A stretch of 52,708 nt of DNA from Alphaproteobacteria bacterium (GTDB taxonomy: Bacteria; Pseudomonadota; Alphaproteobacteria; Micavibrionales; UBA2020). Under the pieces are notes generated by a model that did not search any database, was not told where the DNA came from, and worked only from the letters and a program-made list of their open reading frames with translations. Shown here piece by piece: positions 46,415 through 52,708 of the stretch. Made by a program: the position numbers and the translations under genes. Position 1 is the first letter of the stretch. Each line of letters starts with the position of its first letter. The stretch covers positions 1-52,708 of the forward strand of contig JAPPOU010000038.1 in NCBI GenBank assembly GCA_028817795.1, written 5' to 3'.

Positions 46415-47519
46415 CGATAAAAAGCGCCTGAACACCCTGCGCCTGATCCGCACTGAAAACATCGGCCCCGTCACGTTCCACCGCCTGCTCAGCCGCTATG
46501 GCACGGCAGAACGTGCGCTGGAGGCACTGCCCACGCTATCAAAACGCGGTGGGCGGACAAAACCGCTTGTTGCTTTTCCCGCCGATGAAGCTGAACGCGA
46601 ACTGGAACGCATCGAAAAGTATGGTGCACACCTGATTGCTTTTGACGACCCGCTCTACCCCGCATTACTGCGGCAGTGCGATGACGCGCCACCGCTTATC
46701 ACTGTATTGGGAGACCCTCAAATACTCTCGCGCCCGGCACTTGGCGTTGTCGGCGCCAGGAACGCATCACTTGCCGGGCGAAAAATGGCGGAAAGCCTTT
46801 CGCAAAAAACGGGCGCGGGCGGCTATACCATTGTCTCCGGCCTTGCACGCGGCATTGACAGCGCCGCGCACCAGGCCGCGCTGGATACAGGCACCATCGC
46901 CGTTGTCGCAGGCGGGATTGATGTCATCTACCCGCCGGAAAATGAAAAATTATATCGCGCCATTGCCGAAAAAGGCGCAATCGTCGCCGAAAGCCCCTTT
47001 GGCACGGAACCGATTGCCCGGCATTTTCCCAAACGAAACCGTATTATATCGGGCCTGTCCCAAGGCGTGTTGATTGTGGAGGCCGCGCTAAAATCAGGAT
47101 CACTCATTACCGCCCGCATGGCGCTGGAACAAAACCGCGAGGTTTTTGCCGTGCCGGGATCGCCCATGGACCCACGATCAGGCGGCGCGAATGCAATGCT
47201 GAAAGACGGCGCCCATATCGTCACAACGGCAGACGATATTTTACACGTATTGCGCGCCCTGAAGCTGCGACCCCTTGCAGACAACAAAGCCGCGCCATGG
47301 CAGCCCCCCCTTCCAACAGACACGCCGGACAATACGCCGGAGCCTGATACCGCCCTGCGTCACCGCGTGATGGAATCGCTCAGTACCGCACCCGTGCTTG
47401 TGGATGACCTGATCCGCAGCCTTGATGTGCCTGCAGCCTTCGTTCTGTCTGTTTTACTTGAATTAGAGCTTGCAGGCCGCGTGGAAAGGCAGACCGGCAA
47501 CAAAGTAAACCTTATTTAG
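46407..47519 (+). CDS. dprA: DNA-processing protein DprA (Smf)
   Basis: LGVVGARNASLAGRKMA, SGLARGIDSAAHQAAL, FPKRNRIISGLSQGVLIVEAALKSGSLITAR, REVFAVPGSP. Confidence 0.9.
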   Translation: MADDKKRLNTLRLIRTENIGPVTFHRLLSRYGTAERALEALPTLSKRGGRTKPLVAFPADEAERELERIEKYGAHLIAFDDPLYPALLRQCDDAPPLITVLGDPQILSRPALGVVGARNASLAGRKMAESLSQKTGAGGYTIVSGLARGIDSAAHQAALDTGTIAVVAGGIDVIYPPENEKLYRAIAEKGAIVAESPFGTEPIARHFPKRNRIISGLSQGVLIVEAALKSGSLITARMALEQNREVFAVPGSPMDPRSGGANAMLKDGAHIVTTADDILHVLRALKLRPLADNKAAPWQPPLPTDTPDNTPEPDTALRHRVMESLSTAPVLVDDLIRSLDVPAAFVLSVLLELELAGRVERQTGNKVNLI

Positions 47520-50500
47520 TTTTTTGCAGCGCTTCCATACGTTCAACCTCTGCACGCAAAGCATCTATTTCGCGCTGGCGGCTCTCGATCATATGCTGGC
47601 GCTCTTGCACTGCCTTAACCAGCGGCGCAATCATGTCATCAGACCGGATGTGATAGGTTTTCGCATCATCATTATCTTGCGTGACCATATTTGTCACACG
47701 GCCTTCAAGCGCTTTTTCCACCTCTTGCGCGATAAAGCCATACTGCAAAAGACGATCATCACTCTTCAAGCGATAAGACACAGGCCGCAAGTGGCGCACA
47801 AAATCAAGGCCCAGATCACTGTCACAGATATCTGTCTTTAAACGGCGGTCAGACGGCGGCGACCAAGCCACCTGCCCTGCGATAACCGTGATATTGCCGT
47901 CGCCCAATTGAACGGTATTGCTGCTGGATACGGACGCATTATACCCAATGGCTGTCGTATTCGACAGCGCTGCACTGGCAACATTCGCAAGATTTCCAAT
48001 AGCCGTATTCTGGCTACCCGTGCCATTCGCGGACAAAGCGCCGTTCCCCACCCCTGTATTGTCGCCACCTGTCGTATTAGATGCTAAGGCATCATGCCCC
48101 ACCGCTGTATTGTTATCGCCGGATGTCGTCGCGCCCAGGGCATCAAAGCCTATGGCCGTGTTATTGTCCCCAACCGTGCTGCTGCTGCCCGTTGCATCCA
48201 GCGTGCCTGTGCCGATGGCCACGTTATTACCACCTGTTGTGTTAGCGTACAACGCCTGATACCCCGCCGCCGTGTTATTGGCACCGCTGGTATTTGCTTG
48301 CAATGCCTGATACCCCACCGCTGTATTGTTATCTCCCGTTGCCGATGTTAATGCCCAGTAACCAAACGCCGTATTGCGCTGGCCAGACACATTCGACAAC
48401 AAAGCCTGAAACCCAAACCCCAAACTGCCCGATCCGGATTGATCTGCCGCCATGGCCTGAAATCCAAATGCCGTGCCCTGCCCGGCGCTGCTGGACCGCG
48501 ATGCCAGCGCCGCATACCCAAATGCCGTATTTTCCGCCGATGTCGTAATAGATGTTCCGGCCAGCGAACCAATGGCCGTCGTATAATGCGCCGTTGCCAA
48601 CACGGCAGCAGATGCACCCACTGCTGTGCTGTTGGTATGGGTTTGGTTTGATGCCAAGACATCCCACCCAACTGCCACATTCCCTGTGCCGCTGGTATTA
48701 GATAACAGTGCCCCTGCGCCAAAAGCAACGCCGCCCCCTGCGCCATTGGCATTAAATGCGCCATAACCAACCGCCGTTACAGCGCTGTTCGTATTGGCCG
48801 CCAACGCTCCCGCGCCAATCGCCGTAATACCGCTCCCTGTGTTGCTAGATGCCGCGCCCGACCCAATCACCACATTTTCACCCGCCGTGGCATTGTAAGA
48901 CGCAAGCACGTTATAACCTATGCCGACACTCCCCACCGCCGCGAGGTTTGTTCCCGATAAAAAAGCATTTGAGCCAATACCAACAACATAGCTGGCTGTC
49001 GTTAAGGCTGCACCAGCATTATACCCAATAAGGCTATTCCCCGTACCGCTGGTCAACGCAGTCAGCGCCTGATACCCCACCGCCGTGTTGTTGCTTTGCC
49101 CTACTGACGCATCAAGGGCCTGTGCGCCAAATACCGTATTTCCTGATCCTGTTGTATTCTGCAGCAGTGCCCGAAACCCTGCCGCCGTGTTTCCATCTCC
49201 TGTTGTATTATCCTCTAGCGTCTCATACCCCAGCGCTGTATTGCCATCGCCCTGCCCCTGTGACCAATTGCCAAAAAGCGCACTCGAACCCACTGCTGTA
49301 TTATAATGTGGGGAATTACCACCACTTGAAAAAAGCCCTGCCGCCGCACGGAATCCAACGCCAACGTTACCATCTCCTGTATTCAAATTCCCCATTGAAG
49401 CCCATCCGATTGCCGTGGTACCCCCAACACCGGCAGCAGAGCCCAAAGCACCATGCCCCACCGCCGTATTATAATCATTCGAATGGGTATATCCGGCATA
49501 CCTGCCTATCGCGACATTCCCTGTGCGGCCAGCTAAATTTCGGGCCGCCTCAAAACCAATTGCAAGGTTATATCTACCCGTCCCATTACTTAAAAGAGCT
49601 CCTGAACCAACCGCCGTATTGTAATGTCCGTTTGTGGAGTTTTCCAAAGCCTGTTTCCCAACACCAACGTTACCAAGCTTGAATCCCGCAGATGACACAG
49701 CGCGATACCCTACGCCAACATTCCCTGTCCCGGTTGTATTATCCAACATGGCTTGATACCCCATGGCCGTATTCCCGGCACCGGTCGTATTATCTTCCAA
49801 AGCCTGCTCACCAACGGCAATATTGCCCGTGCCGGGGGCCAAACCCACAGGGAATGTCGCCATCACGGTTTCCATGTTATCGCCGCTGTGCGAATCGTGA
49901 TTCCACCAATGATCGAGATACCCCGGTGTCGTAATCACCCTGTATACGGCCGATGTCGCCAGCCCTGCCGAAGAATCCTGATCCAAAAGAAACGACGTCC
50001 ACCCCACTTCGGGTGAAAAATTGACGTTGGAATCATTGGAATCATCAAATATAAGCGCGACATACAAATAAGGTGCCAACCCCGGATCGGCCAAAGGCCC
50101 GGCATCCGAAGAAGCAGAACTGCCACTCCCAAACGTAGACCAGCCAATTTTCTCTACAGGCACCACTGGATCACCGCCTGACAACTCAAGCGCGGCCATG
50201 TTAATCATCGAATCTTGCGGCGGCGTCGCTGTAATCGTAAATGGGGTGCCTGTTGCAACATTCGTCGCCACAAATATTTGCCCACGCGGGCCACTAGTAT
50301 CGGCATTCGCATAAACGCCCTGCACAACAGTGGAATAAATATTTCCCTGGTTGTCCGTAACTGTCGCGTTGTCAAAGCTACCATTCGTTCCCTTACCCGC
50401 CAAAACGACAATAACCGTATTTCCTGCCGTCGGCGCGGAAGCAAAAGTCGTTGCCGCAGACGCTGCATTGGCCGTTTGCGTGACAGGTGTCGAAACCTGC

Positions 50501-52242: not shown

Positions 52243-52708
52243 GGCGCGCCTCCTGCCTGTAAATTCTGCAGATGTATTTTCAAGGCTTCTATGTCACGGC
52301 GTTGCCGTGCCTCAATATCTTCTTGCTCCTGCACGGCCTTGACCAAAGGCGCAAGAATATCGGCATGGCGCAATCTGTACATGTGCGCAGCGCTATCATC
52401 TTGCGTTACCATGTTTGTTTTACGACCTTCCAAAACGCCCTCAACCTCTTGCGCGATAAAGCCGTAATCCACTTTCTTGTTTCCATCTATACGCATATAG
52501 GAAACGGGGCGCAGCTTCATGATAAACGCAAGGCCCAAGTCGCTGTCTGTAATGTCTGTCTTTAACCGTGCATCTGACGTCGCCGTGAAACTGGCGGGCT
52601 GGGCGGCGATTGTCGTGACGCTGCCGTTACCAATATACAAGTAATTGCACGCCGTAGCCGTTGCGAAAAAACAAATTGCCGTCGCGTTCGTTAAGTTACT
52701 GGCATTCA
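52239..52708 (-). CDS. 3' end of a second, paralogous giant fibre gene (continues beyond the window)
   Basis: The frame stays open to the window edge (...NASNLTNATAICFFATATACNYLYIGNGS...); the track's M at 52640 is a TTG. The C-terminus SDARLKTDITDSDLGLAFIMKLRPVSY...YGFIAQEVEGVLEGR is the same S74-like domain. Confidence 0.8.
   Translation of the reverse strand, partial: NASNLTNATAICFFATATACNYLYIGNGSVTTIAAQPASFTATSDARLKTDITDSDLGLAFIMKLRPVSYMRIDGNKKVDYGFIAQEVEGVLEGRKTNMVTQDDSAAHMYRLRHADILAPLVKAVQEQEDIEARQRRDIEALKIHLQNLQAGGAP

Follow-up and report, generated by a model that had tools for sequence, protein, structure and literature searches.

Modular fibre proteins with a candidate pilin-like N-terminal module and phage tail-fibre parts in an uncultured alphaproteobacterium

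Introduction

How might a bacterium come to encode long fibre proteins that resemble phage tail fibres over most of their length and a type IV pilin at the N-terminus, and what could carry such fibres to the cell surface? This question is raised by one end of a DNA stretch of 52,708 nucleotides from an alphaproteobacterium (Micavibrionales, UBA2020; NCBI GenBank assembly GCA_028817795.1, contig JAPPOU010000038.1), the whole of which is hereafter called the window. The gene under study, fibre gene C, is the last of three translationally coupled fibre genes, and a divergent type IV filament operon is located in the same window. Our reading, held with moderate confidence, is that the three genes encode modular fibres in which a non-canonical, type-IV-pilin-like N-terminal module (N-module) is joined to phage tail-fibre parts, and that these fibres are probably adhesins displayed at a filament tip.

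Module organization of the fibre genes

From N- to C-terminus, gene C encodes the pilin-like N-module, a neck, two phage-type beta domains, a stalk of 17-residue repeats and an S74 chaperone domain. The parts, with the paralogue upstream, are as follows (window coordinates; aa, amino acids; AF2, AlphaFold2; HMM, hidden Markov model).

47512..52242, minus strand: fibre gene C, 1576 aa (open reading frame; protein identical to P0001; third gene of the coupled array on ENA contig L062)
52216..52242, minus strand: leader peptide, aa 1-9, MMRWKNQKG, with a putative prepilin-peptidase cleavage site between G9 and N10 (invariance of Gly9)
51598..52242, minus strand: N-module, aa 1-215 (alignment A1, AF2 model, HMM search, hhalign to the p224 family)
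50653..51342, minus strand: phage-type all-beta domain, copy 1, aa 301-530 (35% identical to copy 2; AF2 model; BFVD matches)
49807..50472, minus strand: phage-type all-beta domain, copy 2, aa 591-812 (similarity to copy 1; recurs in the family)
47854..49806, minus strand: repeat stalk, aa 813-1463, 17-residue units of the NTAxGxxAL type (autocorrelation, PHROG matches)
47512..47853, minus strand: S74 intramolecular chaperone/autoprotease domain, aa 1464-1576 and stop (PF13884; SDRRLK motif)
52239..52708, minus strand: 3' end of paralogue B, full length 1094 aa, identical to P0004 (PF13884; matches the P0004 C-terminus; overlaps gene C by ATGA)

The Peptidase_S74 family of Pfam (PF13884, IPR030392) matched gene C at aa 1464-1516 with E=5e-13 (49.6 bits, cut-off 22), and also matched the upstream open reading frame truncated by the window end (E=1.9e-12, 47.7 bits). 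The S-D-x-x-x-K dyad, following the definition of the SDxxxK motif in S74 domains (PMC10769870), stands at the domain start as S1464-D-R-R-L-K1469, the codon of Ser1464 being TCT at 47851-47853. The stalk upstream is 651 aa long and is built of units of the type NTAxGxxALxxNTxGxx, and its autocorrelation reaches 0.30 at lag 17, the mean being 0.11, with harmonics at lags 34 and 51. Stalk and S74 region together matched phage tail-spike and virion-structural families of PHROG, including phrog_4636 (tail spike, E=2e-70), phrog_23837 (E=1e-64) and phrog_6002 (E=3e-53). A fibre gene with a repeat stalk and an S74 domain is thus real and well above chance level.

Between the N-module and the stalk, a beta domain of about 215 aa is duplicated (35% identity between the copies, E=2e-25), and it is present one to seven times in other members of the family. 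Its AF2 model is a confident all-beta fold (pLDDT 87, pTM 0.89). In a search of BFVD, a collection of predicted viral structures, the best match was obtained at E=4.8e-13 (TM 0.81, root-mean-square deviation 1.9 Å), and the 30 matches at E<=1e-3 were tailed-phage proteins, several of them annotated as minor tail proteins. The same domain gave no match in Pfam or among PDB sequences, and Foldseek found no significant structural neighbour of the model in PDB. Because the stalk and S74 region match PHROG families and the beta domain matches phage proteins in structure, all of gene C downstream of the N-module consists of phage tail parts.

On ENA contig L062, which encodes identical proteins, the array extends over 6615-18012 and consists of three translationally coupled genes, A (1128 aa), B (1094 aa) and C (1576 aa), with A upstream of B. 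All three proteins contain the N-module, the stalk and the S74 domain, with mutual identities of about 40%. The start of gene C overlaps the stop of paralogue B in ATGA at 52239-52242, with AGGAGG upstream of the overlap. A first-pass annotation of the window, made from its letters alone, had described an S74 module at the end of both the complete and the truncated gene, an autocleavage Ser codon at 47851-47853, a stalk of about 650 aa and a translationally coupled paralogue array. These claims are all borne out here, the S74 module by scores above the curated Pfam threshold, the dyad being completed by Lys1469. Its count of two tandem genes has to be raised to three, since the full contig supplied not only the whole of paralogue B but also paralogue A, and its list of fibre parts, right for the stalk and the S74 end, had missed the two beta-domain copies in the middle. 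Within the aligned last 470 bases of the window, which otherwise match the ENA contig, eight mismatches are clustered at about 52640-52673 and turn AIGYGATATASNSVY into AICFFATATACNYLY in paralogue B; the probable cause is a misassembly at the end of the contig or a difference between strains.

On L062, DprA and PlsY stand at one flank of the array, and CTP-transferase, TopoI and RNase R at the opposite flank. A related metagenome-assembled genome (MAG; L068 1-2029) has no fibre genes at this place, DprA being the immediate neighbour of TopoI, and therefore the array behaves as an insertion. It looks as if it had been inserted into a conserved housekeeping block that also carries the filament operon. 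Around the fibre gene of the closest relative (L001), no synteny with the window was detected.

Such an insertion between DprA and TopoI, together with the tail-spike matches in PHROG, the phage-like middle domain and an S74 domain typical of phage fibres, could mean that the genes are leftover tail-fibre genes of a prophage or tailocin, with no tie to the filament locus. We regard this as very improbable, since the flanks carry no other phage genes and consist of the five neighbours named above, since the N-module is missing from the phage-like homologues and is common instead to the fibres and the small proteins of the filament operon, and since the module occurs in 1,149 chromosomal clusters, always at the N-terminus. 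That the proteins are trimeric autotransporter adhesins of the YadA type is an idea to which we give next to no credence, although one homologue carries the JGI label 'trimeric autotransporter adhesin', some relatives have YadA-head matches in Pfam (PF05658), and the stalk is rich in NTAxG. Gene C itself gave neither a YadA_anchor nor a YadA_head match in Pfam at E<=1, and its C-terminus is an S74 domain predicted to be cleaved off, not a beta-barrel. Both the prophage and the autotransporter readings were rejected on these grounds, that is, for the lack of phage flanks and for an S74 C-terminus without YadA anchor. The InterPro entry IPR008640, which is met again below, we take to be the YadA-like head repeat.

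The N-terminal module and its family

About half of the initial set of 68 homologues share a conserved N-terminal region of about 215 aa, while the regions downstream vary among S74, YadA head, RCC1, LamG, C-type lectin and other modules. An alignment of 24 members with this N-module (A1) served as the basis for the profile, the HMM and the AF2 model. Invariant in A1 are Gly9, the stretch D72-x-D74-x-D76 followed by E80-P81, D108-P-W110, Y116-C117, G164 and D191-D192; the motifs DPWG, Y-x-Y-C and ISAGPD are invariant or nearly so across the 24 members.

An exhaustive search of 1.84 billion representative proteins with the HMM detected 1,149 clusters carrying the N-module, 714 of them at E<=1e-30. 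The module is N-terminal in every one of these clusters, and the proteins reach 6,785 aa. Conservation is centred on the boundary of the leader, which in gene C (MMRWKNQK-G) has a charge of +3 and is followed by 33 uncharged residues. Among 154 members, with a median leader length of 16 aa, the consensus is [EQ]-[SRK]-G before the boundary and N (74%) or S (24%), [IV] and F (86%) after it, and +5 is occupied by A, T, V or I throughout the 154.

The AF2 model built from A1 (mean pLDDT 83.7) consists of a 59-residue helix (aa 11-69) on a small sheet, with predicted strands at aa 115-120, 156-162 and 193-198. The predicted shape is a lollipop, and it is by a shape of this sort that type IV pilins are defined (Raynaud et al. 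2021, PMC8179133). Directly after the helix, alpha1, the fibre N-module has an invariant D-x-D-x-D-G-x-x-E-P loop (aa 72-81), and a similar loop, GGGDLDGDxxID, is found in the p224 family of small operon proteins described below (window 29087-29761, aa ~92-103). From its sequence, this acidic loop looks like a Ca2+ site of the DxDxDG type. As regards annotation, two N-module fibres, P0040 of Micavibrio aeruginosavorus EPB (2716 aa) and P0062, are publicly labelled 'TonB-dependent receptor', which is evidently a mis-annotation. The expanded 'hemolysin-related' family of Micavibrio was considered as a possible counterpart of the N-module family and was rejected, those proteins being RTX proteins of type I secretion.

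The filament operon of the window

The filament locus of the window contains the following genes.

29087..29761, minus strand: p224, small pilin-like protein with the same leader, Gly-Ser site, hydrophobic helix and DxDxD loop (hhalign to A1; alignment A3)
29780..30535, minus strand: p251, small pilin-like protein, candidate major subunit (hhalign to A1; N-termini of orthologues and paralogues)
30599..32724, minus strand: two conserved bitopic membrane proteins, 187 aa and 310 aa (conserved operon positions; no family match)
32753..33967, minus strand: platform protein, T2SSF (PF00482, E=2.4e-9)
33974..35803, minus strand: assembly ATPase, T2SSE (PF00437, E=7e-77; at least 1267 orthologue clusters)
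35824..37431, minus strand: Ig/ASH 'choice-of-anchor D' protein (conserved operon position)
37428..39185, minus strand: secretin (PF00263, E=4.7e-14)
39753..40271, plus strand: short A24 prepilin peptidase, divergent from the operon (PF01478, E=8.5e-16, no other domain)

The operon order is secretin, Ig protein, ATPase, platform, two transmembrane proteins and two or three small pilin-like proteins, with the A24 peptidase gene in divergent orientation. This operon and its housekeeping neighbourhood were kept in every orthologous locus inspected (L045, L065-L073). The two bitopic proteins occupy the positions of GspM/GspL or PilO/PilN-type components and may be their counterparts. The A24 peptidase probably starts at Met70 of a 241-codon open reading frame beginning at 39546, and carries the GLGDVK motif; its orthologues are 166-169 aa long, have no second domain and stand in the same position beside the operon. 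Enzymes of the bifunctional PilD type carry an extra N-terminal domain, which the short peptidase lacks. Its absence would fit a +1 residue that is Asn or Ser and not a methylated Phe, and the peptidase is apparently non-methylating.

Toward the end of the operon, p224 is the last or second-last gene in L045 and L065-L073, and the N-terminus x-G followed by [NSG]-x-[LI]-[FI] is common to all the small operon-end proteins. The p251-type N-terminus after Gly is almost invariant across genomes of 38% to 60% GC, as expected of the assembly helix of a major subunit. From this context, the small proteins are candidate pilins.

When the components were compared with NCBIfam, the best scores remained far from the cut-offs: the ATPase gave 231 of 630 bits with GspE, the secretin 93 of 250 with MshL, and the platform protein 31.6 of 424 with GspF, and the A24 peptidase and the two transmembrane proteins had no NCBIfam match. 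No component reached the NCBIfam equivalog cut-off for the type II secretion system (T2SS), type IVa pilus, type IVb pilus, MSH or Tad classes; the operon represents a very divergent type IV filament system.

A decidedly unlikely alternative is that this machine is a T2SS and the fibres are its cargo, the N-module serving to dock or prime them before they are released or bound elsewhere on the surface. That the ATPase and the platform protein score best against GspE and GspF agrees with this, as does the finding of no retraction ATPase within the filament locus; the Micavibrio genome paper reports a T2SS without annotated pseudopilins, and secreted partners use the tip minor pilin in type IVb systems. 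Classical T2SS substrates, however, carry Sec or Tat signals and not pilin-like N-termini, no component came up to a T2SS equivalog cut-off, and a retained hydrophobic N-terminal half of alpha1 would need a partner helix bundle or a membrane for solubility.

Returning to the reading of the fibres as tip adhesins of a filament, we tentatively go one step further and propose, as something possible rather than probable, that the operon belongs to a previously unrecognised class of type IV filaments in Micavibrio-like alphaproteobacteria, the main function of which would be to launch and display a very large set (over 1,000 clusters, up to 6,785 aa) of interchangeable, homotrimeric tip adhesins derived from phage fibres. 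The marks of this possible class would be subunits without Glu5, an N-terminus of [EQ]-x-G followed by [NS]-[IV/L]-F, an A24 peptidase that is short and non-methylating, and the Ig/ASH protein as an additional component. The Ig/ASH protein, of about 510-540 aa, is located between secretin and ATPase in the window and at the same place in L045 and L065-L073; we know of no such component in textbook T2SS or type IV pilus systems. In two of the orthologous loci, genes of the Dot/Icm type (DotI/IcmL, DotH/IcmK and TrbI-like; type IVB secretion) lie directly downstream of the operon, at L065 17347-21827 and L070 17508-19836.

A probable link between the fibres and the filament proteins

Profile comparison by hhalign placed the N-module together with the small operon proteins. 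A1 aligned with the p224 family at 92-95% probability (E=6e-7 to 3e-8, 77-79 columns), the best alignment (95.2%, E=2.6e-8, 77 columns) comprising the leader, the hydrophobic segment, the whole of alpha1 and the DxDxD loop. With p251 the alignment was limited to the leader and the start of the helix (82%, E=1e-5). The first-pass annotation had noted such an alignment with two pilin-like proteins of the locus, and to this extent it was right, but it placed their genes 8 kb away while the actual distance from the fibre gene is 17 kb. A distance of about 8 kb holds just for the side of the locus nearest the fibre gene, where the secretin gene ends at 39185; the A24 gene (end at 40271) is at about 7 kb.

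In other genomes the two parts are sometimes found side by side. The complete chromosome OZ244156.1 (1.65 Mb; L045) carries a fibre gene of 1138 aa, with N-module and S74 domain, about 100 bp after the two small genes that close the orthologous operon, and on the same strand. This fibre (9989-13405) has a strongly hydrophobic tail past the S74 domain (C-terminal ~40 aa, including …ILNIVLSVFVFVLLIFFSFNFYIKL…), which the window fibres do not have. Extra p251-type genes were found near fibre genes in L001, L023 and L057. A single scan in which the accessions of fibre loci were matched with those of ATPase-bearing contigs, using one peptide pattern, gave at least one extra assembly, MAG GCA_964458415.1, which contains both machinery and fibre, on different contigs. 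A functional link between fibres and machinery thus gains support at the level of genome organization from the A24 neighbour, the operon-linked fibre of L045 and the p251-type genes beside fibres.

Is the N-module a pilin?

Two features of type IV pilins, a short hydrophilic leader ending in Gly or Ala and about 21 hydrophobic residues that start an alpha1 of about 50 residues, are present in the N-module, the latter as 33 uncharged residues and the predicted helix of aa 11-69. Comparison with GspG adds likeness at the level of motifs. In both, a leader ending in Gly precedes a hydrophobic helix, and in register; DPWGxxYxY stands before a strand, φφφ-S-x-G-x-D after the next strand, and an acidic loop is present, all in the same order. 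With a GspG profile verified against PDB, hhalign gave three short but collinear pieces: the leader with the N-terminal half of alpha1, Gly-1 in register (E=2.7e-4, 42% probability), DPWGxxYxY (E=1.8e-4, 49%) and φφφISAGPD (E=0.04, 1%), the last two on predicted strands 1 and 2. On the other hand, the head of the fibre N-module is about twice as large, with long insertions, and there is neither Glu5 nor Phe at +1, nor a PF08334 or TIGR match.

Several findings weigh against taking the N-module for a pilin and the fibres for the tip of this filament. Glu at mature position 5 is normally a hallmark of type IV pilins; it was found in none of the 154 fibre members, nor in the p251 and p224 families. 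Neither the fibre nor the small operon proteins gave a match at E<=1 to N_methyl (PF07963/TIGR02532), T2SSG (PF08334) or a TIGR pilin family in Pfam or NCBIfam. Searches of PDB sequences with the A1 profile and with the whole gene C protein both gave 0 matches, and Foldseek of the N-module model against PDB found no solved pilin (best E=2.8). The alignment with GspG, whether by the whole or the head-only profile, did not exceed 49% hhalign probability and did not cover the head as a unit, and for the p224 family the probability with GspG was 1.5%. The full operon was present within about 10 kb at only 2 of about 62 fibre loci; this linkage is not statistically compelling alone. Finally, a trimer with six globular domains of about 215 aa may exceed the width of the secretin channel.

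Because Glu5 and the N_methyl signature were looked for and not found, we do not file the N-module as GspG or as a canonical type IV pilin. The 'GspG hallmarks' that the first-pass annotation had seen in the globular domain hold as motifs, being in register and collinear, but find no support from profiles: Pfam and NCBIfam gave nothing for this end of the protein, either as GspG or as N_methyl, and hhalign stayed within the limit given above. The collinear matches are suggestive of homology to GspG.

The same findings would be in agreement with another explanation, namely that the N-module is a lineage-specific signal-anchor or sorting signal which the fibres share by chance with the small operon proteins and which does not make them filament subunits. 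The fibres would then be exported or anchored by another route, such as an inner-membrane tether, and the basic leader and hydrophobic helix would be pilin-like by convergence. The absence of a pilin signature, of Glu5 and of a structural match to solved pilins, the absence of linkage at most fibre genes, and a pilin identity of the small operon proteins that is itself drawn from context are all as this explanation predicts. We nevertheless consider it unlikely, though to be taken seriously. The conservation, centred on the boundary Gly with fixed residues at -3 and at +1 to +3, is typical of a processing site and not of a plain anchor, and the operon has, as a conserved neighbour, the gene of an A24 peptidase of the prepilin type. 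The homology to p224 goes beyond a transmembrane segment, covering the whole 60-residue helix and the DxDxD loop, and in L001, L023 and L057, as in the L045 operon, fibre genes are accompanied by p251-type genes. In addition, a 1500-aa fibre matured by an S74 domain and tethered to the inner membrane of a diderm cell would have no obvious use.

Proposed route of fibre assembly

If the fibres are tip adhesins of the filament, the following route can be proposed. The short basic leader and the uncharged helix of about 30 residues would, as predicted from sequence, put the protein into the inner membrane. Cleavage after the invariant Gly9 would then fall to the A24 peptidase, short and apparently non-methylating, the gene of which is present beside the operon. 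In the periplasm, the S74 domains of the gene C product would trimerise, template the folding of the stalk, possibly as a beta-helix, and cleave themselves off at Ser1464, by analogy with the phage and mosaic adhesive trimer (MAT) proteins for which S74 trimerisation and self-cleavage are established (PMC10769870). The three tethered N-modules could form a homotrimeric initiation and tip complex, as in CofB/TcpB, beneath which the machine of secretin, ATPase and platform would polymerise p251 and p224 and so push the fibre through the secretin. The product would be a short filament whose phage-like adhesin tip might bind glycans on the surface of prey or host. With many paralogues that differ in their distal modules, a single machine would have a whole set of tips at its disposal.

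Comparison with known fibre and pilus systems

The concept of the 'modular pilin', a pilin module with a grafted functional module that is probably located at the tip, is established (Raynaud et al. 2021, PMC8179133). The InterPro census in that study contains 29 proteins of the architecture IPR012902-IPR030392 (S74), and a further 4 of IPR012902-IPR008640-IPR030392 and 3 with two copies of IPR008640, in total 7; the S74 module was read there only as 'predicted peptidases' (PMC8179133). As in the fibres described here, the N-terminal pilin module of the latter group is followed by YadA-head-type repeats and a C-terminal S74 domain, and tip display was proposed for modular pilins generally. The proteins in the census, however, carry the canonical class III signal (N_methyl), whereas the fibre family has no such signature, no Glu5 and Asn or Ser at +1; with 1,149 clusters, as compared with about 36 catalogued proteins, it is far larger, its proteins reach 6,785 aa, and it is tied to a divergent machinery of its own. 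The earlier statement that a pilin-headed S74 fibre is an undescribed architecture was therefore too strong, in view both of this census and of the known trimeric tip pilins CofB and TcpB: the architecture is already catalogued in the form with a canonical signal, and not in the form with the signature-less N-module.

CofB and TcpB are homotrimeric minor pilins at the tip of type IVb pili, the trimer initiating assembly and remaining at the tip. They consist of a pilin domain, a linker and homotrimerising C-terminal domains, a layout similar to that of the fibres, for which trimerisation is presumed. Their systems have few pilin types, and the gene for the large minor pilin is located downstream of that for the major pilin, as in L045. 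The trimerising part of CofB consists of beta-repeat and H-type lectin domains of about 300 aa, in contrast to more than 1,200 aa of phage-fibre modules and a self-cleaving S74 domain in gene C. No similarity to CofB or TcpB was detected, either by the PDB sequence searches (0 matches) or by Foldseek of the N-module.

The MAT fibres of Bdellovibrio bacteriovorus (Caulton et al. 2024, PMC10769870) also form a multi-gene family, with trimeric fibres of about 1000 aa that have a constant N-domain, variable distal modules and, in many cases, S74/SDxxxK ends, and in these respects the fibre family is alike. The MAT proteins have a Sec signal peptide and a beta-rich N-domain of about 130 aa with no known partner, and their surface anchor is explicitly given as unknown (PMC10769870). 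By description, the constant N-domain of the fibre family differs, being a predicted 59-residue helix with a head, without a signal of the SPase I type and common to the proteins of a filament operon. The likeness of the two at the N-terminus is analogous, not homologous.

Phage S74 spikes and fibres, such as the K1F endosialidase and the L-shaped fibre of T5, have the S74 domain, the Ser-Lys dyad, a repeat stalk and a phage-type beta domain as in gene C. Phage fibres attach to the virion by the N-terminus, whereas the N-terminus of gene C is a pilin-like module predicted to insert into the membrane, and the gene is chromosomal and without phage context.

No description of the N-module fibre family or of its operon type was found in the literature searched. 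What is new here is an N-module that is non-canonical and invisible to signatures, a divergent machine dedicated to it, the size and variety of the family and the all-phage composition of the fibre. If the reading of the fibres as pilin-like tip adhesins is true, it provides a concrete and testable route by which predatory or host-associated bacteria mount phage-like receptor-binding fibres. The possible new class of filaments would moreover answer how 'MAT-like' fibres of predators are anchored and exported. The subunits of type IV filaments would extend to proteins with no Glu5 and with Asn or Ser at +1, invisible to the present pilin signatures, so that more than 1,000 protein clusters would escape counts of pilins and modular pilins that rely on IPR012902. 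The catalogued 'pilin-S74 peptidase' proteins would likewise be better read as chaperone-matured trimeric tip fibres. The A1 profile and the operon signature are ready as annotation markers for genes now unnamed or mislabelled.

Related loci and other observations

The related loci are mostly from MAGs labelled Micavibrio, Alphaproteobacteria or Pseudobdellovibrionaceae, the NCBI taxonomy filing Micavibrio under Pseudobdellovibrionaceae. The organism of the window is an uncultured relative, and any lifestyle ascribed to it is presumed. The N-module loci L007, L008, L009, L011, L016, L054-L056 and L059 carry the labels Hyphomicrobium, Mesorhizobium, Bradyrhizobiaceae or, for one isolate assembly, 'Methylobacterium sp. 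NEAU 140'. The GC content of these loci is 58-64%. Two explanations offer themselves: the family may reach further than the Micavibrio-like lineages, or the contigs may be contaminants or wrongly binned.

At least five ankyrin-repeat proteins are encoded in the window, as follows.

1618-2583, plus strand: ankyrin-repeat protein
2580-3533, plus strand: ankyrin-repeat protein
4295-5092, minus strand: ankyrin-repeat protein
21465-22007, minus strand: ankyrin-repeat protein
25403-26146, plus strand: ankyrin-repeat protein

So many ankyrin proteins over 52 kb are not usual in a free-living bacterium; they are typical of one that interacts with eukaryotic cells. Together with the Dot/Icm-like genes at two of the orthologous loci, the ankyrin proteins would be compatible with some of these lineages targeting eukaryotic cells, and they bear on what the fibres may bind to.

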